From positions 111,907-175,906 of IMG/VR virus record IMGVR_UViG_3300037470_000672: a stretch of 64,000 nt of DNA; one strand, 5' to 3'. Of the stretch, positions 8,590 through 64,000 are shown piece by piece. Both the position numbers and the translations under genes were made by a program. The notes under the pieces were generated by a model. That model was not told the DNA's origin. It saw only the letters and a program-made list of their open reading frames with translations, and searched no databases. This DNA comes from a virus. The first letter of the stretch is position 1, and each line of letters starts with the position of its first letter.

Positions 8590-8613
8590 GTCTCGGAATT
8601 TCAAAGATCCGAA
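8590..8613 (-). repeat. Solitary CRISPR-like repeat (family A)
   Basis: 22/24 identity to array repeat over the hairpin part; followed directly on minus strand by AGGAGAG and the GTG start at 8579. Confidence 0.8.
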
Positions 8614-8652
8614 CGCTCTTCTGTGCATCCTTTCATCGCTGGGACGACGGGA

Positions 8653-12231: not shown

Positions 12232-14022
12232 CTACGAGGCCGACAGTCGCTTGATTTCATCGAGAGAAAGGCCGGTGCCGTTGTAACTCGCCCCGGATCG
12301 AGCGTCGCTGCTTGCGTGAGCTTCCATCACCGGTTCGTTCGGGTTGGAAATGTCGTAGTCCAATCCGCCCGTACGGGCGGATTGGGGCAGTTGGGGCGCC
12401 GGCTCGACATGGCTGACGGAGTTGGAGCCTGCCAAAGCGCGCACACGGGCACGGATGGCATCGACCTGGTCCGATTCGGACATCGGGCGGCGGAACTGGT
12501 CCAACACCTGATCCACTTCCGCTCGGTTGGTCGGCGGGTTCTCCTCGAAGTGGCTGACCATCTCCGCACGGCGGGGGTGGTGACGAAGTCGCTCGGCGAT
12601 GTAGGCGTCGATCGCTTGGGCCTTGTTGAGAGTTACCGACTTCTCCAACGCCTCTTTGAGCTGGGTCATCTGCGTTTCGAGGGCCTGAACTCGCCGATCG
12701 GACTCAGACTTGACCTTGTTCATCTCCTTCTGCCGCGCGTCCTCTTGTGCCTTCTTCTCGGCCGCGCGGCGATCCAGCTCTTCTTGGACAGCGGAGACCT
12801 TGGTGGCGATCTCTTCAACAGATCCGTAGCTCGCCACGTCACCGACGATGCTGCGGATCAGATCGGCGTCGGCGCTCCCTTGAAGCTGTTGCTCCAGATA
12901 GAAGCGGTAGCCTGCCTTCTTGGCCATCGCTGCGAGCTTGTTGACCTGGTCTTCGAGCTGGACCTTCTCCTTGGAAAAGGAGCTGCGCTCGGTCGCGAGC
13001 TGGCCTTCCAGCTTGTCGATGCGGTCTTCGAGCTTGGCGACGACCGATTCCTCATCCTCGGAGAGGACGTAGGGTCGGATGACGGTCTTGATCTGTTCGA
13101 CCGCCTTCATCGCGCCAGCCAACTTCGGATCGGAGAGCATGTCACCACGAACCTGCTCGGCAATCTGCTCTTTGGCGTCGACGATCTGCTGGGTCACCTT
13201 CTCGGTGACCTGTTTGACCGCCTCGTCCTTGCCCTTTTCGCGCCCGGCCTCTTCGGCTTGGAGGACGCGCTTCTCGGCATCCTCGGTGAGCTTGGCGAGT
13301 AGGGCATCTTTTTCGGCGAGCTGCTCTTGCATCTCTCGGGTCGCCTGGGCCGAGATGGCTTCAAACAGCTCGGGATGCTGTTCCTTGAGCTGCTCCTCGG
13401 TGAGGTCTTGGATCTCCATACTCAGGTTCCCCTTGTTCTCTTGGAAGGATTCTGGCCACGCATCGCGGTCTGCTGGATCGGCGACGGCGTCGAAGGTGAC
13501 CAACCGGAAGCCGGGTTGGACTACAGATTCACCTTGCGCGTTGGTCCGTGTTGCGCCGAAGCCTCTGGAAGAAACACCGACCTGACAACCTGCTTCGACG
13601 ATGGCTTTGAGGTTCTGTCCGCGCGCGGTGTTGAGAATCTCTGCTTCACCGTACATCACACCATCAGGTTGAAGGTCCAACTTTGTGATAACGTGAGAAA
13701 TACGGTTGAGGCTTGTACGACCATCCAACGGATGGTCGGCTTCCCCGAATACACGACGCTGTTCAATCAGAGGTTGGAGGCGCTTCAGCTCCTCCGCTAC
13801 GAGATTGCGCGGGTATAGGCGCTTGTTTTCGGTGGCCCGATCAGCGCGACCGAACTCACCCTTAAGGATCCACTTCTTCGGCGCACCCTCTACGACTTCA
13901 CGCTCTTCAACGACCAGAGGTGTCGACGGGTAGTAGACCCCTTCGATGAGACCCACCTGTCCCTGCGTGTCCTCCAAGAGGGCGCGACCGATTTTTTTGG
14001 CTGGGGTAGGGGGTGTACTCAT
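12232..14022 (-). CDS. Prohead protease (T4 gp21/S77-like) fused to long coiled-coil scaffold
   Basis: NKRLYPR, FGEADHP, GVSSRGFG, LVTFDAVADP in N-terminal ~190 aa; heptad-rich remainder. Confidence 0.9.
   Translation of the reverse strand: MSTPPTPAKKIGRALLEDTQGQVGLIEGVYYPSTPLVVEEREVVEGAPKKWILKGEFGRADRATENKRLYPRNLVAEELKRLQPLIEQRRVFGEADHPLDGRTSLNRISHVITKLDLQPDGVMYGEAEILNTARGQNLKAIVEAGCQVGVSSRGFGATRTNAQGESVVQPGFRLVTFDAVADPADRDAWPESFQENKGNLSMEIQDLTEEQLKEQHPELFEAISAQATREMQEQLAEKDALLAKLTEDAEKRVLQAEEAGREKGKDEAVKQVTEKVTQQIVDAKEQIAEQVRGDMLSDPKLAGAMKAVEQIKTVIRPYVLSEDEESVVAKLEDRIDKLEGQLATERSSFSKEKVQLEDQVNKLAAMAKKAGYRFYLEQQLQGSADADLIRSIVGDVASYGSVEEIATKVSAVQEELDRRAAEKKAQEDARQKEMNKVKSESDRRVQALETQMTQLKEALEKSVTLNKAQAIDAYIAERLRHHPRRAEMVSHFEENPPTNRAEVDQVLDQFRRPMSESDQVDAIRARVRALAGSNSVSHVEPAPQLPQSARTGGLDYDISNPNEPVMEAHASSDARSGASYNGTGLSLDEIKRLSAS
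12360..12385. repeat. Palindrome family B, 26-bp perfect palindrome inside protease/scaffold ORF
   Basis: CCAATCCGCCCGTACGGGCGGATTGG read directly. Confidence 0.9.
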
Positions 14023-14200: not shown

Positions 14201-15745
14201 TCACTGCGGTCCTGGCTTGCCCTTCTCTTTCGCAGCCCACTGGGCCATCTTCTTGGCGCCGTACTTCTTCTGTCCGATGGCCGCCGCCACCGCTTTGGGA
14301 TCTTGGATGTCGGGGCGCTTCTCCAACTCCTTCGCCAGGGCGGCGAAGCGACCCCCCTTTCCCGTCTCGGAATTCCAAGGATCCGAGCGTCCTTTCAACC
14401 CAAAAGGGGCCTTCTCAGCTTCCATGACGGCCTCCTCGGGGAGAAGGTGCTCGTAGCAGGCTGCGAGAAAGGTGATGTCGTTGTCGTCGATGGATTCCTT
14501 CTTGTAGCCGTTCTTCTTTGCGGCCTTCATCCCCTTGACGACCTTCATCGCCTCATCGCCGGGCATGTTGGCGAGCTTCACACCCATCTCAACCATACCT
14601 TGCACAGCGTCCAGGGTGTCATCCTCGGACATGGTCGCCATGCCGACGAGCTTGTTCTTAAGACCCCTCACGTATGCCGGGATGTCGTCATCGGAGAGCG
14701 ACTCCAGCTTGACGGCGACGCCCTTCATGAGGGCCAAAGCGTCATCGTCCGACAGTCCTTCGAGCGCGCTTGCGGCAAGCGCGATGACAGCCAGGTCTGA
14801 ACCCTCAACCTGGTCCTCCTCCTCCGAGTCGGCGAAGAGGCTCACGTCTTCGATGAGGTCGTCGTAAATCTCCAACATCTCCAGAAACGTGCTGAAGAAG
14901 AGCTTGAAGTCCTCTTCAAATTCCGCCGCGTCGGTGTCGCCCAACTCGTACTCATGCAACGTCTCTGCATAGTCAGCAGCGGTCTCGGCCAGGGCGTTGA
15001 CGGCCTGGCAGAACTCGATGACGCCTTCGCGGATCTCGTCATCCCCCTCCTCATCGAAGAGGTCTGCCTCGACCATCTCGGCGAGGGTCTCCTCGACCGG
15101 GACGAGTTGATGGGCAAGATCGTTGGCAGCCAGCGAGAGCGACGCGAACGCCTGCGTGTTCTCCAACACCTTGGGCGCGAGCGAGACCTTACCGGCTGCC
15201 TCCATCAGATCGTTGAGATCGGCGATCAACGCCGTCAGCGCATCCGCCTCCACCCCTTCCTGTGCAGGCGACGGACGGCGCAACGTGATGCGCTTGACAC
15301 CTGACTTGCGCAGGTGGCCGAGGCGGGACTGCGCTCGCTTGTAGAGGCGCTTGAAGCGTCGGCCCGCGGCCGATCGGCGCCACTTCTTGACCATGCGCTT
15401 CTTGACGGCCTTGACACGGCGGTACTTGCGACGGGCGAGACGTCGTTCACGACGAATCTCAGCGCCGCGCTCCTGTCGCATAATACGTGCGGCTTGCTCA
15501 GACAAGTCCGCCAACTGGTCGTCGTCCAGATCTGCTTGGTCGAGAAGCCGGGAGATCTCCGCCGCGACGCGCGCCACGTCCAGATCGACCACTTCTGCTG
15601 GGTGAGGGTCTTCCTGACGAGTGGAGTCCTCCACGATAGGAGCAGACGGCGGGGGGTTGACGATTCGCTGCACCCTTTCATCATCGCGTACCAACCCGAT
15701 GAGGGCGAAGTCTTCGGCAAGAGAAGAGAGCTTGGGCTGGGTCAC
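14201..15745 (-). CDS. Probable prohead core protein (gp67/gp68-like position)
   Basis: GTG start 15745 with GGAGG RBS overlapping previous stop; very basic R/K block then acidic region; lies between portal and protease. Confidence 0.6.
   Translation of the reverse strand: MTQPKLSSLAEDFALIGLVRDDERVQRIVNPPPSAPIVEDSTRQEDPHPAEVVDLDVARVAAEISRLLDQADLDDDQLADLSEQAARIMRQERGAEIRRERRLARRKYRRVKAVKKRMVKKWRRSAAGRRFKRLYKRAQSRLGHLRKSGVKRITLRRPSPAQEGVEADALTALIADLNDLMEAAGKVSLAPKVLENTQAFASLSLAANDLAHQLVPVEETLAEMVEADLFDEEGDDEIREGVIEFCQAVNALAETAADYAETLHEYELGDTDAAEFEEDFKLFFSTFLEMLEIYDDLIEDVSLFADSEEEDQVEGSDLAVIALAASALEGLSDDDALALMKGVAVKLESLSDDDIPAYVRGLKNKLVGMATMSEDDTLDAVQGMVEMGVKLANMPGDEAMKVVKGMKAAKKNGYKKESIDDNDITFLAACYEHLLPEEAVMEAEKAPFGLKGRSDPWNSETGKGGRFAALAKELEKRPDIQDPKAVAAAIGQKKYGAKKMAQWAAKEKGKPGPQ
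14364..14399 (-). repeat. Full-length CRISPR-like repeat (family A) inserted in frame in a CDS
   Basis: GTCTCGGAATTCCAAGGATCCGAGCGTCCTTTCAAC, 33/36 identical to array repeat; encodes LKGRSDPWNSET. Confidence 0.9.
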
Positions 15746-16656
15746 GGCGAATCCTCCGGACTCACGTCGGCTTGGGCAGCAGCTTCTACAAAACACCGCG
15801 CCACAGAGATTGGAAAGAGAACTTCCGACAGAACGTTGCGAAAATCGGCAAGTGTGTTGACGCTCGCGTCCTGTTGGATTGTGAGCACCTTCTCCGCAGC
15901 GGTACTGACCGTCTCTAGGTGCTCGGACAACTCCACTTGGACCCTGTCCGCGAGGCTATCAGCGCCATCTCGGAATTCCAAAGAACCGAGCGGCCTCGCA
16001 TCCCCAAAGTCGAAGCTGTTGAGCTTGTTGCGCTCATCCCTAAGCATGCGCACCAGGTCTTCAAGATCGGTAACGACCTGCATTCGGTCATCATCGCCGA
16101 CGATGTTCTCGTCTAGCTTTTGGAGCTGACGCTCCTCGATCTCTTTGAGCCCTTTATGCCAACAGGCCCGCTTCAGCGTGTTTTCGTGCTCAACCCACAG
16201 GGAGCGGAAGTCCGACCGCTGGAGGATCTCGGCCTTCGCCTTGAGAACCACTGCGGCCACATCCTGTTTTGCTGGTCGAACAGACTCTACCAGGGAAGCG
16301 AGCCGAAGAGCAGCATCTGGGTCACCGCTGAGCAAGCCCTTCACAACCTGCTCAGCTTCCTCCTGTACAAACGCCTCAAGGTTCTCCTCGGAGTAAACCT
16401 TCAGCGGTACCTGCTCGTGCCCTGTGATCCGCAAATCACCATTGCTGTCCTCATCAAAGCGCACCCTGACAGCCTTCGACGAAGCCGAGAGAACGATGGC
16501 GTGACCAGGGAAGGTTGCCACCACCCGTGTTTCTACCCGCTCACCAAACAACCGGGGCGAGGATTCCTGCACAGCCTCCACAAGCCGCGCAATGAGGTGC
16601 TCAAAACTCCCGTTGCTGAGCTTCCTGATGTCTTCGGTGGCGAGTAAGCTGGTCAT
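15742..16656 (-). CDS. Hypothetical head-morphogenesis protein
   Basis: 304 aa ORF between portal and core gene. Confidence 0.65.
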   Translation of the reverse strand: MTSLLATEDIRKLSNGSFEHLIARLVEAVQESSPRLFGERVETRVVATFPGHAIVLSASSKAVRVRFDEDSNGDLRITGHEQVPLKVYSEENLEAFVQEEAEQVVKGLLSGDPDAALRLASLVESVRPAKQDVAAVVLKAKAEILQRSDFRSLWVEHENTLKRACWHKGLKEIEERQLQKLDENIVGDDDRMQVVTDLEDLVRMLRDERNKLNSFDFGDARPLGSLEFRDGADSLADRVQVELSEHLETVSTAAEKVLTIQQDASVNTLADFRNVLSEVLFPISVARCFVEAAAQADVSPEDSP

Positions 16657-16670
16657 AGGTGTTTGGGCGA

Positions 16671-16706
16671 GTCTCGGAATTTCAAGGGTCCGAGCATCCT
16701 TTTCTC
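16671..16706 (-). repeat. Solitary CRISPR-like repeat (family A)
   Basis: 29/36 identical to array repeat; fills the portal-stop to next-start gap. Confidence 0.85.
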
Positions 16707-16711
16707 CTGCG

Positions 16712-19700
16712 TCAGGTGCCTCTCCTTACGCTTATCTCCTGCGTCAGGTGCCGTAGTTCTTCAAGACGGCGGGCCAAGTCCTTGTCGTTTTTCAACAAGC
16801 GATCGAGCTTTTCGCTAGCCCTCTTCTCCGCTTCACGGTCGCCCGCAAATAGCTGTCGTTCCGATATACCACTACCCTTAGAAGGGGGCAAGCTACCAGA
16901 AACTCTGTCTGAAACGTACTTCCCACGGGACGCACGAGTAGACTCCGGAACCCCTTCCGGTGCAGGTTCTGTCGCCTGGGCTTGAATCTGCGCTGCCTTA
17001 GCCTCTTGCCGTGCTTGGGATTCGGCCTCTTGTTCCCGCTGCTTCATGATGGTTTGAATGGCGTCGTCGTTCATCCCAAAAATCGTGGACAGTATCCAGT
17101 AGGCGGACACAAACTCCCTCATCCGCCCCGCCAGGTCGGCCCGCGCGTTCATCACCTCCACCTGCGCCAGCTCGAAAATAGCTGACGGGACGGTCATGTG
17201 AGTAGTGAAGGGTGCCTGCGCAGGGTCGATGCCCAACGCCGCCAGGTGTACGCGACCGATCTTGTGCGTACCGTTGATGATCTGCCGCTGCACCCTGAGA
17301 ACCGTGCGCGCGAAGCGCACATCCTGGCTGGATAGGATGTTCCGGACTACACCCTCTTCCTGACCAAGGTACGCCTTGGGGATCTTGATTGATGCCCATA
17401 GCTTATTCTTAAAGTAGTCAACATCATCAATCGCTTGCCACTGCGGTCCTTGAAGTACCTCTATTCTAGAGCCTTCCTGACCCTTTCTAACAGGCACGTA
17501 GAAATCTTCGTCTTGGCCAAAAGCGTTGTATCTAACATCCAGCTTTCCGGTGCCTGCGTTGAAGAACTTCTTCTTGCGGTGCTGCTGGCGTACGTTATTG
17601 ACGTGAGCCATAGCCTCCCTTGGAGGGAGGTCCCCAACGTCCACATAGAAGACCCGTCGCTCCGGCGACCGTCGTAGACGGTACACAAGCATGGAGTCTT
17701 CTAACAAAATCAGGCGTTTGTAGAGCCAGCGAGCGGACTCCAGGACCGAGTTGTGAACCACAACACCGTCAGCCACAAAGTTGTGTTCCGGATCGGCTAC
17801 TTCGATGTCGTAGACCGGTTCCTCCCCTTGCATTTCAATTGAGAGTATCTTCTCCTCAGCAAAATCAGCTCCCTCGGCGATAGGCGTCTCATTGAAGGTG
17901 AGGAGGTACTGACGACCGGAATGAATGACGTCCGTCGTTGGATGGGTAGCGATGGGGTTATCTCGCGGCTCTCGCTCCCGGATGCGCCCGGATTTCCAGC
18001 CCAACCCGTCGACCAGCGTCTTTATATCTCGCACCAAGTCTCTGTTACAAAGCTCGATGTGGTGGTCTTTATGGCTGCGTGTGTCCCAACCATCCGCATC
18101 CATGAAACCGTGCAGGAGCGCGAGCCGGATTTCTTCGGGAGCCCCAAAAACCCAATACGGAAGACGCTTCGCGTGTGCCCCGCCGTCTACCCAACCGAGT
18201 TTGCGGAAAAGTGCCGCAAGCGCTTGGCTTGAGACGTAGCTCTGGGTCTCATCCGGCAAGGTGCTAACAGGTAGTCCAGTGCTTGCGAGGAGTCCCTCGT
18301 AAAAAGAGTTACGATCGGGGTATTCCCCGCGAGCGAAGTACACTTGCCCGTCTGTAATCCACCCGTCTCCTAGGAGAAACCCCCACAACCGAGCAAAATC
18401 AGGCGTAACAAAATCAGGGAGAGTGATCCTCTCATCCTCTATCTTGGGTTCAAAAGCACCGTAGAAAAACGGCACTTTCACCTCACAAAAGAGATCACGC
18501 AGTACGGGCAACGGAACCGATGACTGTCCTTTAAGCAAACTTTCCAAAGTTCCGCGAGCGATACCCAACTTAGCGGCTAGGGGCCGGAGACCCTCATCCT
18601 TGGGCGTATACCGCCCTATACGGGACGCCGCCCTAAGCGCGCTAGCGCCGCGCTCCGTGAGTCGTACAGGACCCTCCTCCTCTATCTCACGTAGGTGTAA
18701 CCCAAGCGGCGGCGGCGGGTTCGTATCCGGCATTCGGGTGGTGATAACGATCCGATCCCCCTCCTGTAGCTCGCACAGCGGTTTCCAAGCGTTTCGTCCC
18801 CCCCTACCCTTCCCTACTGCTAAAAGAGGGTGCTCCGCTGTAAGGCAAAGCTCTCGGTGCTTCGTACGAACCCGATAGACGGTCTTCGTCCCAGAGCAGA
18901 CATGGTCAAGCACCCTCGTCGTTCGGAGCTTTCCTGCGTGCCGCAAAAGAACGCGCTGGCCTGGTTGGATGTCGGATATCGGCCTCGGCCCTTCCGTCGT
19001 CCAAACTTGCGAACCCCCCGCGAGACAGTGCCCGTAAACAGAGCGCCTGAACTTGCTGTGCAGTCGGAAGTGAGCGATCTCCCAATCCTCGAACACCGGG
19101 TTTGGACCCGTGTCCTGCGATGCAAGATTCGAGGTGTCAGAAAAACCATCTTGGCCGCCGCCGGGGAGGGAGGTCGCGTTCTGGCCGTATCGGTTGACGA
19201 GGAGCTTGCGGTAATCCTCGGGCGTGAAGTCAAACCGCCCCTTGAAGTCTTGGATGAATCCTAGAAGCTGCCCTTTAGGGCCTTCGATTCGCCGCATGGT
19301 CGCAGGTGGGAGGTAGTTGATACCTTCTACCCCATTCTGGGTAACAAGTATCTCCTCAAAGTTCGATCCGTACTTGCAAGCTGTACGAGCGATGGACCAT
19401 ATCTCGTCTTCGTACCTCAAAGTCTTGAAGTAGAGGTCGTCAACAATCTCTTGGACTGTTCGATCAGGAGAGGTTATCCAGAGCGATCGCTTGAGCTGTG
19501 TGTCGGGTTGTGTTACATCATCGGCGTAAATATCGATCGCGGAGTTGTGTACAAACACCCCCTCACAGGCGAAATTCTGGTAGACCGGTACCTCGATATC
19601 GTACACATCCTCGACACCGTCGGGCTCTACACGTACCACCATGTGGTTGTTGTAGTCGTCTTCCCCTTCTTTCGGACCGGTAAGCGACGATCCAAGCATA

Positions 19701-20839
19701 TAGCGACCTAAGCCGTACTGCTGCATACGTCGAACAAGAGTATTCCAACTTACATTCAGGTTACGCGCCGCTTCCGAAAGCGAGGATGACGCCCTGACAG
19801 CCGCTTCCACTGAGTCTCGTGCCAGCGGAATAGTATGGCTTTGCGCAATCGCCTGACGGTGCGCTTCGGACAGACATCCTGTCGGTGGCGGGTTGTTGCA
19901 GGAAACGTCTGGAAGGCTCGTAGACCGCTGCTGTGCGCGAACCCACTTCAATTTCTCACGAGGGTTGTTCCAGCGTTTTTTGGCAGCTTCTCGGATCTTA
20001 GCGCGGACTTCCGGGCGCTTGGTTATCTCGTGTATGCGGGAATGCTCTGCTCGCGTCTCAACGGAGAGGTTACCAGGATGAGGGTTTGTCTTGTCTCCGT
20101 CTCTGTGATGGACAACAAAACCTTCCGGAATCGGTCCGCTCAGTAGAACCTCCTCAGCCATCCGCCGATGCAGGTACTCTCTGCGGAGTCGACCCTTCCC
20201 CCAAGGATCCGTGACCATCAGGTAGCCGTTCTTCTCTACGCGAGCCGAGAGCGGCATCAACCGTTCCTTAGGCTCAAGCGCCCCTGCGGTCTTGTAACTG
20301 CCATCCCTAAGCATGAAGAGATGGTTAGCCGTGCATCTGATCGACCAGCGCCTCTTTTCCTTTCCGGGCTGCGCCCGGTACTCCTCGAACGTGACCTTGA
20401 AAACCGGTACGCGACTGCCGGTTTTCGTCGGACCTACAGCTTCGGCTGGGACTACTCTCTGGCGCCTCAGATCAGCCGCTAACACGTAGAACTTCTGATC
20501 TGGATTCTCAGACCGCCATCGAAGCAACTCCTCGATGGTGCGATAACCAGTGCCTTCTGGCAGCACCGTGTAGACTCTAGAAGTTCCGCATAGACAAGCT
20601 ATTTCGCCGTAGTCGTCCATCTCTTCGTAATCAATGTATCGTGAAACGAGGTCTTGATCGAGCTTAAGATACTGTGAAACAGTGTCGTAGCCGTGGATAG
20701 AGAAAAGGTCCGCAGGACGACCTCGGGGGAAGACGTCCCCCTTGGCAATTTCGACCGGAGCTTGCTCAGGATCGTTCCGCCACGACCGGCGGACACGATT
20801 TGCCACTCCGTTTACGAAACCTTCAAAAAGTCCTGCCAC
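16712..20839 (-). CDS. Portal protein (T4 gp20-like) containing two inteins
   Basis: YEEMDDYGEIA/SAIDIYADD, WEIAHFRL, LEDSMLVYRLRRSPERRVFYVDVGDLP, EDFYVP, DDVDYFKNKL; about 598 aa after removing inteins. Confidence 0.95.
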   Translation of the reverse strand: MAGLFEGFVNGVANRVRRSWRNDPEQAPVEIAKGDVFPRGRPADLFSIHGYDTVSQYLKLDQDLVSRYIDYEEMDDYGEIACLCGTSRVYTVLPEGTGYRTIEELLRWRSENPDQKFYVLAADLRRQRVVPAEAVGPTKTGSRVPVFKVTFEEYRAQPGKEKRRWSIRCTANHLFMLRDGSYKTAGALEPKERLMPLSARVEKNGYLMVTDPWGKGRLRREYLHRRMAEEVLLSGPIPEGFVVHHRDGDKTNPHPGNLSVETRAEHSRIHEITKRPEVRAKIREAAKKRWNNPREKLKWVRAQQRSTSLPDVSCNNPPPTGCLSEAHRQAIAQSHTIPLARDSVEAAVRASSSLSEAARNLNVSWNTLVRRMQQYGLGRYMLGSSLTGPKEGEDDYNNHMVVRVEPDGVEDVYDIEVPVYQNFACEGVFVHNSAIDIYADDVTQPDTQLKRSLWITSPDRTVQEIVDDLYFKTLRYEDEIWSIARTACKYGSNFEEILVTQNGVEGINYLPPATMRRIEGPKGQLLGFIQDFKGRFDFTPEDYRKLLVNRYGQNATSLPGGGQDGFSDTSNLASQDTGPNPVFEDWEIAHFRLHSKFRRSVYGHCLAGGSQVWTTEGPRPISDIQPGQRVLLRHAGKLRTTRVLDHVCSGTKTVYRVRTKHRELCLTAEHPLLAVGKGRGGRNAWKPLCELQEGDRIVITTRMPDTNPPPPLGLHLREIEEEGPVRLTERGASALRAASRIGRYTPKDEGLRPLAAKLGIARGTLESLLKGQSSVPLPVLRDLFCEVKVPFFYGAFEPKIEDERITLPDFVTPDFARLWGFLLGDGWITDGQVYFARGEYPDRNSFYEGLLASTGLPVSTLPDETQSYVSSQALAALFRKLGWVDGGAHAKRLPYWVFGAPEEIRLALLHGFMDADGWDTRSHKDHHIELCNRDLVRDIKTLVDGLGWKSGRIREREPRDNPIATHPTTDVIHSGRQYLLTFNETPIAEGADFAEEKILSIEMQGEEPVYDIEVADPEHNFVADGVVVHNSVLESARWLYKRLILLEDSMLVYRLRRSPERRVFYVDVGDLPPREAMAHVNNVRQQHRKKKFFNAGTGKLDVRYNAFGQDEDFYVPVRKGQEGSRIEVLQGPQWQAIDDVDYFKNKLWASIKIPKAYLGQEEGVVRNILSSQDVRFARTVLRVQRQIINGTHKIGRVHLAALGIDPAQAPFTTHMTVPSAIFELAQVEVMNARADLAGRMREFVSAYWILSTIFGMNDDAIQTIMKQREQEAESQARQEAKAAQIQAQATEPAPEGVPESTRASRGKYVSDRVSGSLPPSKGSGISERQLFAGDREAEKRASEKLDRLLKNDKDLARRLEELRHLTQEISVRRGT
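17750..19027 (-). mobile_element. Intein 2 in portal, with LAGLIDADG endonuclease (426 aa)
   Basis: Starts CLAGGSQV, ends NFVADGVVVHN then Ser; LWGFLLGDGW and LLHGFMDADGW. Confidence 0.92.
19544..20596 (-). mobile_element. Intein 1 in portal, with HNH endonuclease (351 aa)
   Basis: Starts CLCGTSRV, TANHLF block B, ends NFACEGVFVHN then Ser; YLHRRMAEE..VVHHRDGDKTNPHPGNL HNH motif. Confidence 0.92.
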
Positions 20840-29332: not shown

Positions 29333-29368
29333 ATCTCGGAATTTCAAAGATCCGAGAGCCGTTTCCAT
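29333..29368 (-). repeat. Solitary CRISPR-like repeat (family A)
   Basis: 28/36 identical, stem intact; followed on minus strand directly by GGGAGGT RBS and GTG 29321. Confidence 0.85.
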
Positions 29369-30452: not shown

Positions 30453-30488
30453 TTCTCGGAATTTCAAGGATCCGAGCATCCGTTCAAC
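30453..30488 (-). repeat. Solitary CRISPR-like repeat (family A)
   Basis: 31/36 identical; its 5' GTTGAA contains the stop codon of the Cas4-like gene, its 3' end abuts GGGGAGG RBS. Confidence 0.9.
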
Positions 30489-33880: not shown

Positions 33881-33916
33881 GTCTCGGAGTTTCAAGGATC
33901 CGAGCATCCGTTCACA
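33881..33916 (-). repeat. Solitary CRISPR-like repeat (family A)
   Basis: 29/36 identical; intergenic, 26 nt upstream of recA start. Confidence 0.85.
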
Positions 33917-51487: not shown

Positions 51488-51523
51488 GCCTCGGAATTTC
51501 AAGGATCCGAGTATCCCTGCAAC
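51488..51523 (-). repeat. Solitary CRISPR-like repeat (family A)
   Basis: 29/36 identical; 21 nt upstream of ATG 51466. Confidence 0.85.
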
Positions 51524-54548: not shown

Positions 54549-54584
54549 GTCTCGGAATTTCACAGATCCGAGCACCCTTTCACA
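54549..54584 (-). repeat. Solitary CRISPR-like repeat (family A)
   Basis: 30/36 identical; intergenic, 5 nt after stop at 54590. Confidence 0.85.
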
Positions 54585-60352: not shown

Positions 60353-60988
60353 ATGAGCAAGAAGTATTTCCGGACGCCTCACCTGCCCTACTCCCCGGGC
60401 GGGACGAGCGACGACAAGCGGCTTGCTCGGGACGATCACTTCCTCGGCGAAGAGATCGTCGTGACCGAGAAGATGGACGGCAGCAATGTCTGCCTGACCA
60501 GCGAGGCGGTCTTCGCGCGGAGCCACGCTTCCGCCCCCTCGCACCCGAGCTTCGCACCGCTGAAGGCGCTGCACGCGACGCTTCGGGGGCAGATCCCGAC
60601 CGGGATCAGCATCTTCGGCGAGTGGGTATTCGCTGAGCACAGCATCGCCTATTCGGCCCTGCCGTCTCATCTGATGGTCTTCGCCGTCCGCGACGACGAG
60701 ACGGGCGAGTGGCTGTCCTGGGATGACGTGTGCTTCTTCGCCCAGGAGTTGGGGTTCCAGACGGTGCCCGTACTCTTTCGTGGAGAAACCCGCGATCTGA
60801 AGAGGTTGGTGGCTGGTCTGGACCGCGCCAGCCGATGCGGCGCGGCGGAGAAGGAGGGCATCGTGGTCCGCAAGGCTTGCGCCTGGTCGGATCCGACCAC
60901 CAGCATCGCCAAATTCGTCCGGGCGGATCACGTCCAGACGGACAAGCACTGGAAAACCCAACAGATCCAAATCAACAAAGTGATCTGA
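60353..60988 (+). CDS. ATP-dependent RNA ligase family protein
   Basis: KYFRTPHLPYSPG..DDK, VVTEKMDGSN (KxDG), GEW, KEGIVVR, IAKFVR. Confidence 0.85.
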   Translation: MSKKYFRTPHLPYSPGGTSDDKRLARDDHFLGEEIVVTEKMDGSNVCLTSEAVFARSHASAPSHPSFAPLKALHATLRGQIPTGISIFGEWVFAEHSIAYSALPSHLMVFAVRDDETGEWLSWDDVCFFAQELGFQTVPVLFRGETRDLKRLVAGLDRASRCGAAEKEGIVVRKACAWSDPTTSIAKFVRADHVQTDKHWKTQQIQINKVI

Positions 60989-62158: not shown

Positions 62159-62716
62159 TCACTCCCGCTCGGCGCTGCTGAAGGAGGGCTTGCGCTTGGT
62201 AGACCCTGGGCGGAAGACCACGATCGCCGATGGAAACGGCGCTCCCGTGGTCGCCTTGCCAAACTTCAAACGACCCTGAACCAAGCGCACTTCATCGGCT
62301 TTCATGACATGACTATGCCACCATTTTGTATCCGTTCGCGCAGGCACCAAAAGCACCGACGTGGCGCCATTCGACTTCGCTTCCTCGGCTGCTTTCGCCA
62401 TCCAAGCGCCTACTGAAGAGTAAGGTGGATTTATCCAAACCTTCTCATCTTTCCAAGACCGCGAAAGGCCGTCATCCTTCTTAGTGTAGTATCGGGGACA
62501 CTTCGCGTTCTTCCCATTGGCGCACGGGTCCAGCGTGAACTTGAACTCCTTGTGGAGCTTGTCGTAGAGGTTCTGCGGCGTTGCCCACTCGTCGCTGTTG
62601 GACGAGTAGTGCACTCCCATCTCGCGCTCGAACAACGAGCGGACGTCGAGGAGCTGGTAGTCCTCCAACAGCCGGTAGCTGAACAGCACGCGATCGGGGA
62701 GAAACGACGCGCTCAT
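62159..62716 (-). CDS. Phage N6-adenine DNA methyltransferase (T1 Dam-like family)
   Basis: DEWATPQ, FTLDPCA, DDGLSRSW, WINPPYS, LVPARTDTKWWH. Confidence 0.9.
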   Translation of the reverse strand: MSASFLPDRVLFSYRLLEDYQLLDVRSLFEREMGVHYSSNSDEWATPQNLYDKLHKEFKFTLDPCANGKNAKCPRYYTKKDDGLSRSWKDEKVWINPPYSSVGAWMAKAAEEAKSNGATSVLLVPARTDTKWWHSHVMKADEVRLVQGRLKFGKATTGAPFPSAIVVFRPGSTKRKPSFSSAERE

Positions 62717-62728
62717 TCCGGCTCCCTA

Positions 62729-63226
62729 TCAGGCGCGTACCCAGCGCGCACAGCAGCCCAGCGGGTCGACCGGGGCCGGCATACGGTTCTGATCAATCAC
62801 GACCTGACAGCGTCCCATCACCACACCCTCCTCCGCTGCTGGGAAGACCCGCGGAGCGGGGAGGTACTCTCGGCAGATGTCGCAACTCGTACCGCCCGGA
62901 ACCATATCTAAGCCAGAGAGATTGGGGTCGAGGGGGTCAATGCCGGGATGGTCCGTCCACCGGCGCATCGGCTTGCCGTAGACATGGTAGCCGCAGACGT
63001 GTTCGGCAGTGATCGGCAGGTTCTTTTCGTGTACCACGCGCCGGTCCTGCCCAGCGACCCACATGATGCAGTTGCGGCACGCCTTTCTCGATCCGTCTGG
63101 ATTCGGATGGACGTAGACGACGCCCCAAGGCTGTGAGCGGGCTTCGTGAGGGGGTGGTTCAACCAGCTCCTGGTCGTCTTCGATCAGGAGCTGCCCCTCT
63201 TCGACCAGGACCCGCAGCGACTTCAT
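62729..63226 (-). CDS. Cys-rich hypothetical protein
   Basis: CRNC, CG, CDIC, C, CCARW. Confidence 0.6.
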   Translation of the reverse strand: MKSLRVLVEEGQLLIEDDQELVEPPPHEARSQPWGVVYVHPNPDGSRKACRNCIMWVAGQDRRVVHEKNLPITAEHVCGYHVYGKPMRRWTDHPGIDPLDPNLSGLDMVPGGTSCDICREYLPAPRVFPAAEEGVVMGRCQVVIDQNRMPAPVDPLGCCARWVRA

Positions 63227-63258
63227 CGGGTCTGACTATACTGGGTTTTCGGGTCTGA

Positions 63259-63798
63259 CTACACAGCGTTTTCGGATGCGCCCCTACCGTTGAGCTGCGC
63301 CTCCAGCTCACGGATGCGTTGGTCTTTCACCTCCGCTGCCCGTTGGGTCTCCGCGTGGAGGTTATTCAGCCGGACTCTGAGGTCGTTGACGACATCGCTC
63401 TCGTCCTGCACCTCCCTGCGTCGGAGCACCGGCGACTGCCACTCCTTCCCGTCCGCGTTCAGGGCGCCGTTCACGCGGAGGGAACCGCACGCTGAGCACC
63501 AGGACGCCAACGGAAGCGAGTCTGAGTCCGACAGCCGATGCAGGCTTCCGGCGGGGTGAGGGCACTCTCGATGCGCCCCTGCCTCTTCGTTCAGCTTCTG
63601 TTCGGCTGCCATCAGTTTTACCTGAAGCGCCAGCTTTTCCATCTCTAGCTTGCGGCAGCGGGGCTCCCAGAAGCTCTGGATGCACTCCTGGTAGGCGGAG
63701 ACGGCTGCTGTGATCTGTACCTCAGCAGAGGCCGTTACCTTGGCCCGCTCCTGCTGGAGGATGTCACGGGCCTGTTCTCGGATTTGGGCGTCGACCAT
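63259..63798 (-). CDS. Coiled-coil protein with small zinc ribbon
   Basis: CPH..WCSACG; GAGG RBS. Confidence 0.6.
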   Translation of the reverse strand: MVDAQIREQARDILQQERAKVTASAEVQITAAVSAYQECIQSFWEPRCRKLEMEKLALQVKLMAAEQKLNEEAGAHRECPHPAGSLHRLSDSDSLPLASWCSACGSLRVNGALNADGKEWQSPVLRRREVQDESDVVNDLRVRLNNLHAETQRAAEVKDQRIRELEAQLNGRGASENAV

Positions 63799-63860
63799 CT
63801 GCTACCTCTTTACGACACCTACTACAGGACCGACCCCTACCACAGGACCGTGGTCTTCAT

Positions 63861-64000
63861 GTCTCGGAATTCCAAAGATCCGAGCATCTTTTCAACCGGC
63901 TTGAAGTTGGGGAACGCCTTCCGAAGGTTCTCTGCCAAGTCTCGGAATTCCAAAGATCCGAGCATCTTTTCAACGTGAGGTCATGCTGCCGGCCGATGCC
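63861..64000 (-). CRISPR. CRISPR-like array, continues beyond window edge
   Basis: Two identical 36-bp repeats (63861-63896, 63939-63974) separated by a unique 42-bp spacer; 26 nt of further unique sequence to the edge; minus-strand repeat GTTGAAAAGATGCTCGGATCTTTGGAATTCCGAGAC. Confidence 0.7.

Follow-up and report, generated by a model that had tools for sequence, protein, structure and literature searches.

Results

Array at the end of the window

The window, by which we mean the whole stretch of 64,000 nt analysed here, is C1:111907-175906, the 3′ end of a 175,906-bp IMG/VR virus record (C1), and its edge is the end of the record. Its last 140 nt (63861-64000) contain two exact 36-nt repeats that enclose one 42-nt spacer and are followed by the opening of another spacer (Table 1). 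At the opening of the record, the repeat recurs in six exact copies, with five unique spacers of 37–42 nt between them.

A phage-borne CRISPR array had been proposed here in a preliminary description, which had seen the window only and had asked for a third repeat past the edge and for spacer diversity in related genomes. The six further repeats at the record start supply the former, and two versus five spacers in related assemblies the latter. The array is oriented for transcription from the minus strand and the 64-kb window is free of cas genes, both as that description had it. On the minus strand, the repeat is GTTGAAAAGATGCTCGGATCTTTGGAATTCCGAGAC. The 140 nt at the window end are the promoter-distal end of a genuine phage-encoded type V-M CRISPR array.

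Table 1. Array, solitary repeat units of the window and effector gene. Positions are those of the window unless marked C1 (whole record) or L019.
Feature	Position	Strand	Description
Last (promoter-distal) array repeat	63861..63896	-	36 nt; exact repeat copy; nearest the 179-aa gene in five independent contigs
Spacer S1	63897..63938	-	42 nt; found in all assemblies examined
Second array repeat	63939..63974	-	36 nt; exact copy
Spacer S5, fragment	63975..64000	-	First 26 nt as the + strand reads; S5 cut by the record end; short-form path S5-S1
Trailer, array to next gene	63799..63860	-	62 nt; two tandem 18-mers (63813-63848) and a ribosome-binding site
179-aa gene immediately downstream of the array	63259..63798	-	Exact protein on 24 contigs
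Unit s120496	8590..8625	-	Ends 10 nt before GTG of a head-tail-adaptor-like gene
Unit s126270	14364..14399	-	Within the 3′ part of a 531-aa ORF
Unit s127873, degenerate	15967..16002	-	Within a 304-aa ORF; stem nearly intact, pseudoknot arm decayed
Unit s128577	16671..16706	-	Starts 6 nt past the stop of the portal ORF; ends 14 nt before the next ATG
Unit s141239	29333..29368	-	Ribosome-binding site in the 11 nt from its end to the GTG of a 310-aa gene; JGI start agrees
Unit s142359	30453..30488	-	Upstream TGA is unit columns 3-5; ends 11 nt before TTG with a strong ribosome-binding site; JGI stop agrees
Unit s145787	33881..33916	-	Ends 26 nt before a 567-aa RecA/UvsX-like gene; JGI start agrees
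Unit s163394	51488..51523	-	Ends 21 nt before ATG of a 196-aa gene
Unit s166455	54549..54584	-	Starts 5 nt past the stop of the upstream gene
cas12m, 592 aa (protein P0001)	C1:56196-57974 = L019:2196-3974	-	Pfam, PADLOC and PDB matches

The array exists in two forms, the common R-S5-R-S1-R versus R-S5-R-S4-R-S3-R-S2-R-S1-R of the 175,906-bp record, where R is a repeat and S a spacer. The short form is internal in five independent contigs (L044-L047, L049). Their order in mRNA sense is the tRNA genes, a solitary repeat unit, 454 nt, R-S5-R-S1-R, 62–63 nt and the ATG of the 179-aa gene. The array is placed at the end of the tRNA gene cluster, and the 179-aa gene is probably co-transcribed with it.

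As the two-spacer and five-spacer forms occur in related assemblies, spacer content differs among populations. Since the spacers that vary are the internal ones and the genome lacks cas1 and cas2, recombinational loss between repeats is likelier than recent acquisition. Logan contigs of four DNA runs were also tried on the array and set aside. The cover gap at S3 and S4 is unusable in them, since every repeat interrupts the contigs and solitary units that cross-map make up the joints.

The tRNA cluster, on the minus strand, has 12 of the phage's 13–14 tRNA genes. Within it but outside the window, a minus-strand gene (L016:2015-2671, C1:2015-2671) encodes a 218-aa truncated peptide-chain release factor, made of the C-terminal end of PCRF and the RF-1 domain (E=2e-29). 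The two tandem 18-mers between the array and the 179-aa gene are joined by two tandem 23-mers in the next intergenic gap (63226-63271), and these tandem repeats may be operator-like. Close to the array, a Dam-type N6-adenine methyltransferase is encoded on the minus strand at 62159-62716, and the minority plus strand encodes an RNA ligase at 60353-60988 (PF09414, E=3e-31).

Spacer targets were searched in several collections. The whole array gave only a chance 27-nt match among GenBank phages, the first 22 nt each of S5, S1 and S2 gave no match in IMG/VR, S4 none in metagenome contigs and S3 none in species genomes. None of the spacers has a self-target in the phage genome. With no spacer target, no PAM is derivable and the array could be inactive. 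The repeat core, searched as an exact degenerate pattern, is absent from 185,579 bacterial and archaeal species genomes. It was likewise absent from the viral and metagenome contigs in scans that may have missed the phage's own records.

Genome topology

The first 119 nt of the record are identical to C1:175765-175883, and its last 23 nt are found again only at C1:350-372, within S5. Thus, the record ends overlap inside one array, along two different paths. A 222,336-bp contig from another sample (JGI 3300037515 Ga0395803_0000023; L045, L046) has the 179-aa gene twice, 175,535 nt apart, so it is a wrap-around of about 1.27 genome lengths and not a larger genome.

Hence, the genome is a circular or circularly permuted unit of about 175.5 kb, and the 175,906-bp record is a complete genome, although IMG/VR labels it 'linear' and the CheckV completeness estimate is 83%. 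Its transcription is almost wholly from the minus strand, which has 191 of the 227 crude gene calls. None of the 21 listed runs containing the phage is an RNA run. Relatives were sought through the RecA-like gene; none was found in IMG/VR, and the protein search gave near-identical strains only.

Effector encoded by the phage

Among ten ORFs of 590–800 aa in the phage genome, one has a Cas12f1-like TNB domain (PF07282, E=1e-10). This 592-aa protein, P0001, matches PADLOC Cas12u1 over nearly the full profile (E=2e-103; residues 1-545 align with positions 1-530 of the 533 in the profile) and the solved Cas12m structure 23vw at E=2e-80 over residues 18-544. The next PDB matches are 8pm4 and 23vu, and MmCas12m2 (8hhl) does not reach E=1. 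The RuvC D-E-D triad (D293, E443 and D534) and the four zinc-ribbon cysteines of P0001 align with those of solved Cas12m.

P0001 is the only PF07282 protein of the phage, seven other large ORFs have no PADLOC match, and no Cas1 or Cas2 family match was obtained in the genome. By its homology to Cas12m and its being the sole Cas12/TnpB-family gene, the system is of type V-M and encoded by the phage. [quoted passage not shown]

The main array is about 56 kb from cas12m, which is directly followed by a mini-array of three repeats (C1:56137, 56063 and 55989). A check for a tracrRNA returned a single inverted repeat-like copy in 176 kb, with 8 mismatches, at C1:62486, far from both cas12m and the array.

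Fold of the repeat

The repeat ends in a hairpin like that of type V crRNA handles; on the minus strand, 2 nt separate its 6-bp stem from the 3′ end. This much had been recognised from the window. What had escaped that first look is the pseudoknot arm on the 5′ side of the repeat. From an alignment of 23 units of the phage genome (A1), the fold is an H-type pseudoknot with stem S1 pairing columns 6-10 with 19-23 (5 bp) and stem S2, the 6-bp hairpin, pairing columns 13-18 with 29-34, and it ends in AC. Paired cells amount to 92% of A1.

Within the phage's own units, the pair 8-21 covaries as G-C in 10, A-U in 5 and G-U in 4. No other pair contributes to the within-genome covariation, which the shuffle control (49 of 500 shuffles) shows to be weak. 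Across lineages, the same pseudoknot topology with different letters recurs in nine Cas12m-linked repeats, including those of G001, L024, L025, L026, L035, L036, Virus Rctr197k and the phage's own mini-array. In every compared system, the 5′ arm of the hairpin is immediately followed by the 3′ arm of the pseudoknot stem, and the AC end is seen in all except L025. This comparison of sequences gives strong cross-lineage support for a pseudoknot handle. In line with this, the crRNA of Cas12m2 has a stem and a pseudoknot in its structure and is processed upstream of the scaffold (PMC10442227, PMC11013384).

Other identities of the motif were considered and rejected. As a terminator, the repeat has a weak stem (about -8.7 kcal/mol) and no U-tract. 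As for a promoter, there is no sigma-70-like site upstream of the units or the array, and the solitary copies in the unrelated phage G001 follow G001's own repeat. The Rfam CRISPR-DR families gave no match.

Solitary repeat units

About 23 further copies of the unit are scattered outside the arrays, nine of them inside the window (Table 1). Of the 23, 22 are in mRNA sense, on the strand with about 85% of the genes; the exception, C1:62486, comes after a plus-strand gene block. They are intergenic in 21 of 23 cases versus 11.5% of the genome being intergenic (P about 4e-18), and two are inside ORFs. The scaffold columns are conserved at 95% versus 75% for the five 5′ columns, the part that would be trimmed off on processing.

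In about ten of the units, the gap from the unit's end to the next start codon is 10–26 nt and holds nothing but a ribosome-binding site, and the upstream TGA coincides with columns 3-5 in both s142359 and s34346. JGI gene calls on sister contigs, made independently, bear out the stop overlap of s142359 and the starts behind s141239 and s145787. Some other units are 100–340 nt away from a gene. Two have tRNA neighbours: the tRNA operon running into the array contains one, and the other follows tRNA-Ser at a distance of about 70 nt.

Before the units, no sigma-70-like promoter was found. The 20 nt after each unit have no second match, at up to 2 mismatches in 20 nt, anywhere in the phage genome. 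The genes behind the units encode a RecA/UvsX-like recombinase, a head-tail-adaptor-like protein, an HTH regulator and many unknowns, and belong to no single functional or temporal class. Near-identical strains keep all the units at the same sites.

The portal ORF that precedes s128577 (16712-20839, minus) is 1375 aa long, with its portal domain at residues ~1030-1291 and HNH-endonuclease-like matches at ~197-367, and may be a fusion or contain an inserted homing-endonuclease module. A 16-nt GC-rich palindrome, CCGCCCGTACGGGCGG, has 14 copies with at most 1 mismatch, at C1:914, 16450, 23847, 39046, 42183, 62461, 78145, 92764, 124271, 132775, 148641, 156057, 164296 and 173916. Three of them adjoin the solitary units s874, s42138 and s62562, and the palindrome is probably a second family of intergenic hairpins.

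Other Cas12m-bearing elements

The protein search of IMG/VR yielded a single relative, G001, a phage with a complete genome of 109,753 bp. Its Cas12m is 33% identical to P0001, and beyond this gene the two phages have nothing notable in common. The repeat of G001 is a different one; seven copies form an array immediately behind cas12m, and about eight more are solitary, several of these with compensatory stem changes. At L023:9720-9945, a near-consensus sigma-70 promoter (TTGACT-17-TATAAT) is followed by two solitary units and then by cas12m, an arrangement that, judged by its layout, looks like an autoregulatory leader.

L036, a contig of an NCBI metagenome-assembled genome, has a 784-aa homologue with repeats on both sides and two dispersed mini-arrays. 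In it, 31-nt repeats at L036:9780-9990 and 12360-12700 are only about 14 nt apart, and such gaps are too short for ordinary spacers. Virus Rctr197k (KX853510.1, record positions 110803-114219; L033) has a previously unrecognised Cas12m, 35% identical over 89% of the query and labelled 'similar to transposase', that adjoins an annotated 1.5-kb CRISPR. No dispersed repeat copies were found in Rctr197k and no solitary units in the flanks of the short loci L024-L026, L034 and L035. As solitary units occur in unrelated Cas12m elements, each with its own repeat, and Rctr197k lacks them, they are a recurrent but not obligatory companion of phage V-M systems.

Discussion

Two proposed uses of the phage Cas12m

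Cas12m cuts pre-crRNA inside the repeat, upstream of the scaffold, and keeps the scaffold and the spacer in a crRNA of 50–60 nt. It binds PAM-flanked DNA without cutting it, and transcription or replication is blocked (PMC10442227, PMC11013384). In the phage, the array transcript, probably read through from the tRNA operon, would be cut within each repeat. The scaffold with its spacer would then guide Cas12m to PAM-flanked DNA and the target's transcription or replication would be blocked. By the published non-cutting binding, the array is likely a silencing one. By this analogy, its role is most likely to silence competing mobile elements or host loci.

The solitary units may be put to another use by the same protein. 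Cas12m would bind and cut the phage transcripts at the units, splitting the polycistronic RNA, and would stay on the ribosome-binding site of the downstream gene. The consequence could be RNA processing, translational control or both, either as repression or as RNA stabilisation. That Cas12m binds and cleaves phage transcripts at the units is a reading of their sequence and placement to which we give slightly less than an even chance. Short intergenic gaps speak against it, since compaction alone can bring some units close to start codons, and so do the lack of one class among the genes behind the units and the two units within ORFs.

More tentatively, we propose that the phage has co-opted Cas12m as a post-transcriptional regulator through some 23 handles embedded in its polycistronic and tRNA transcripts, alongside DNA silencing by the array; a single protein would thereby process the RNA and set the timing or level of translation. 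The account taken as a whole, a V-M array with its effector, silencing by the array and solitary units as possible Cas12m sites, we consider likely.

Alternatives

The units could instead be RNA decoys in the manner of RNA anti-CRISPRs, absorbing the Cas12m of a host or a competitor or buffering the phage's own, with no role for the neighbouring genes. Viral solitary units that mimic repeats and inhibit Cas proteins are known, also against a type V system (PMC10651486), and the whole protein-binding scaffold is kept in the units here. We find this unlikely, because the matching effector and array are the phage's own, the repeat core is in no bacterial or archaeal species genome searched, and neither 23 copies nor a stop-to-start placement in operons is needed of a decoy. 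A quite unlikely alternative makes guides of the sequences behind the units. Each unit would turn its own leader and start into a guide, the phage's own copy would be spared by having the unit in the PAM position, and co-infecting relatives without the unit would be silenced, which amounts to superinfection exclusion. Viral mini-arrays against relatives are known, silencing by Cas12m binding works best at gene starts, and a second target of the guide segments is absent from the phage genome. But no unit-less relative was found, near-identical strains keeping every site and no distant relative being recovered, and the units that are 100–340 nt from a gene or beside tRNA genes would make guides of no obvious use.

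It is very unlikely that the units are neutral relics or recombination debris, or an RNA element read by some other factor such as a host RNase, with the array merely sharing the sequence. Several units are degenerate and two are inside ORFs, and without cas1 and cas2 the array can change only by recombination, all in favour of this reading. However, their orientation, intergenic placement, scaffold-selective conservation and compensatory 8-21 pair argue for selection, and the solitary copies of the unrelated G001 follow its own, different repeat. As for the array, the preliminary description had thought of a Cas12j-like system, of a new compact type V effector just past the edge or of an effector borrowed from the host, on the strength of a hairpin 2 nt from the repeat 3′ end. 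Such a hairpin is common to several type V handles, whereas the window edge is the record end and the sequence closes on the record start. The compact type V effector does exist, as the one PF07282 gene, outside the window; it is Cas12m and not a new type, and lies about 56 kb further round the circular genome. It is the sole TnpB/Cas12-family gene in 176 kb, no Cas12j chain is among the PDB matches at E up to 1, seven other large ORFs are without a PADLOC match, and the effector is the phage's own. A Cas12j, new or host effector for this array is almost certainly the wrong reading.

Significance

Phage-borne Cas12m has been reported only just now, and a complete phage, widespread in soil and sediment, is added here with its V-M system. 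The array of this system stands apart from the effector gene and seems to receive its transcription from the tRNA operon. If the solitary units are indeed Cas12m sites, a virus would be using a CRISPR effector to process its own RNA or to control the translation of its own genes, for which the literature searched has no natural example. A full-text search of the literature gave no account of CRISPR handles at the intercistronic junctions of an effector-encoding phage. Synthetic biologists have used Csy4 or Cas12a in handle-based designs for RNA processing and translational control, and Cas12m is under development for base and epigenome editing.

Comparison with known systems

The phage system shares with known type V-M (formerly V-U1; MmCas12m2, GoCas12m and MsCas12m; PDB 23vw, 8pm4 and 23vu) the full-length effector homology with the RuvC fold and the zinc-ribbon TNB. 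It also shares the 36-nt repeat with a 3′ stem and a pseudoknot, the co-orientation of the array with the genes and the lack of an adaptation module. Unlike them, it resides in a 176-kb lytic-looking phage, its main array closes a tRNA operon 56 kb away from cas12m, and about 23 handles are dispersed in the genome.

A close counterpart is MvCas12m of the myxophage MV-1, reported as the first phage Cas12m (bioRxiv 10.64898/2026.09.14.751636, September 2026). Both are phage Cas12m proteins of about 600 aa with the D-E-D triad, no cas1/2/4 and no spacer targets found. MV-1 also has an adjacent array, as cas12m here is followed by the mini-array. By its description, on which this comparison is made, MV-1 differs in having a single array beside the gene, with dispersed repeats unmentioned.

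In function only, the units resemble the RNase III sites of T7 and the RegB and RegA controls of T4 (PMC3014915), as a structured intercistronic element near ribosome-binding sites. There is no homology, and here the element is a CRISPR handle and its presumed reader a CRISPR effector.

Single repeats outside arrays and two-repeat mini-arrays that keep the Cas-binding fold are known as Racr (PMC10651486) and as crRNA-like mini-arrays (bioRxiv 10.1101/2023.03.03.530964). Here, unlike with Racr, the phage owns the effector and the units match its own array and not a host system. Unlike with regulatory mini-arrays, the rest of the genome contains no partial target for the sequences beside the units. 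Unlike both, the units number about 23, are all but one in mRNA sense and fill intercistronic gaps. Compared in sequence and layout, the solitary handles suggest that the known biology of solitary repeats extends to a whole phage genome, with reading by Cas12m as the mechanism proposed.
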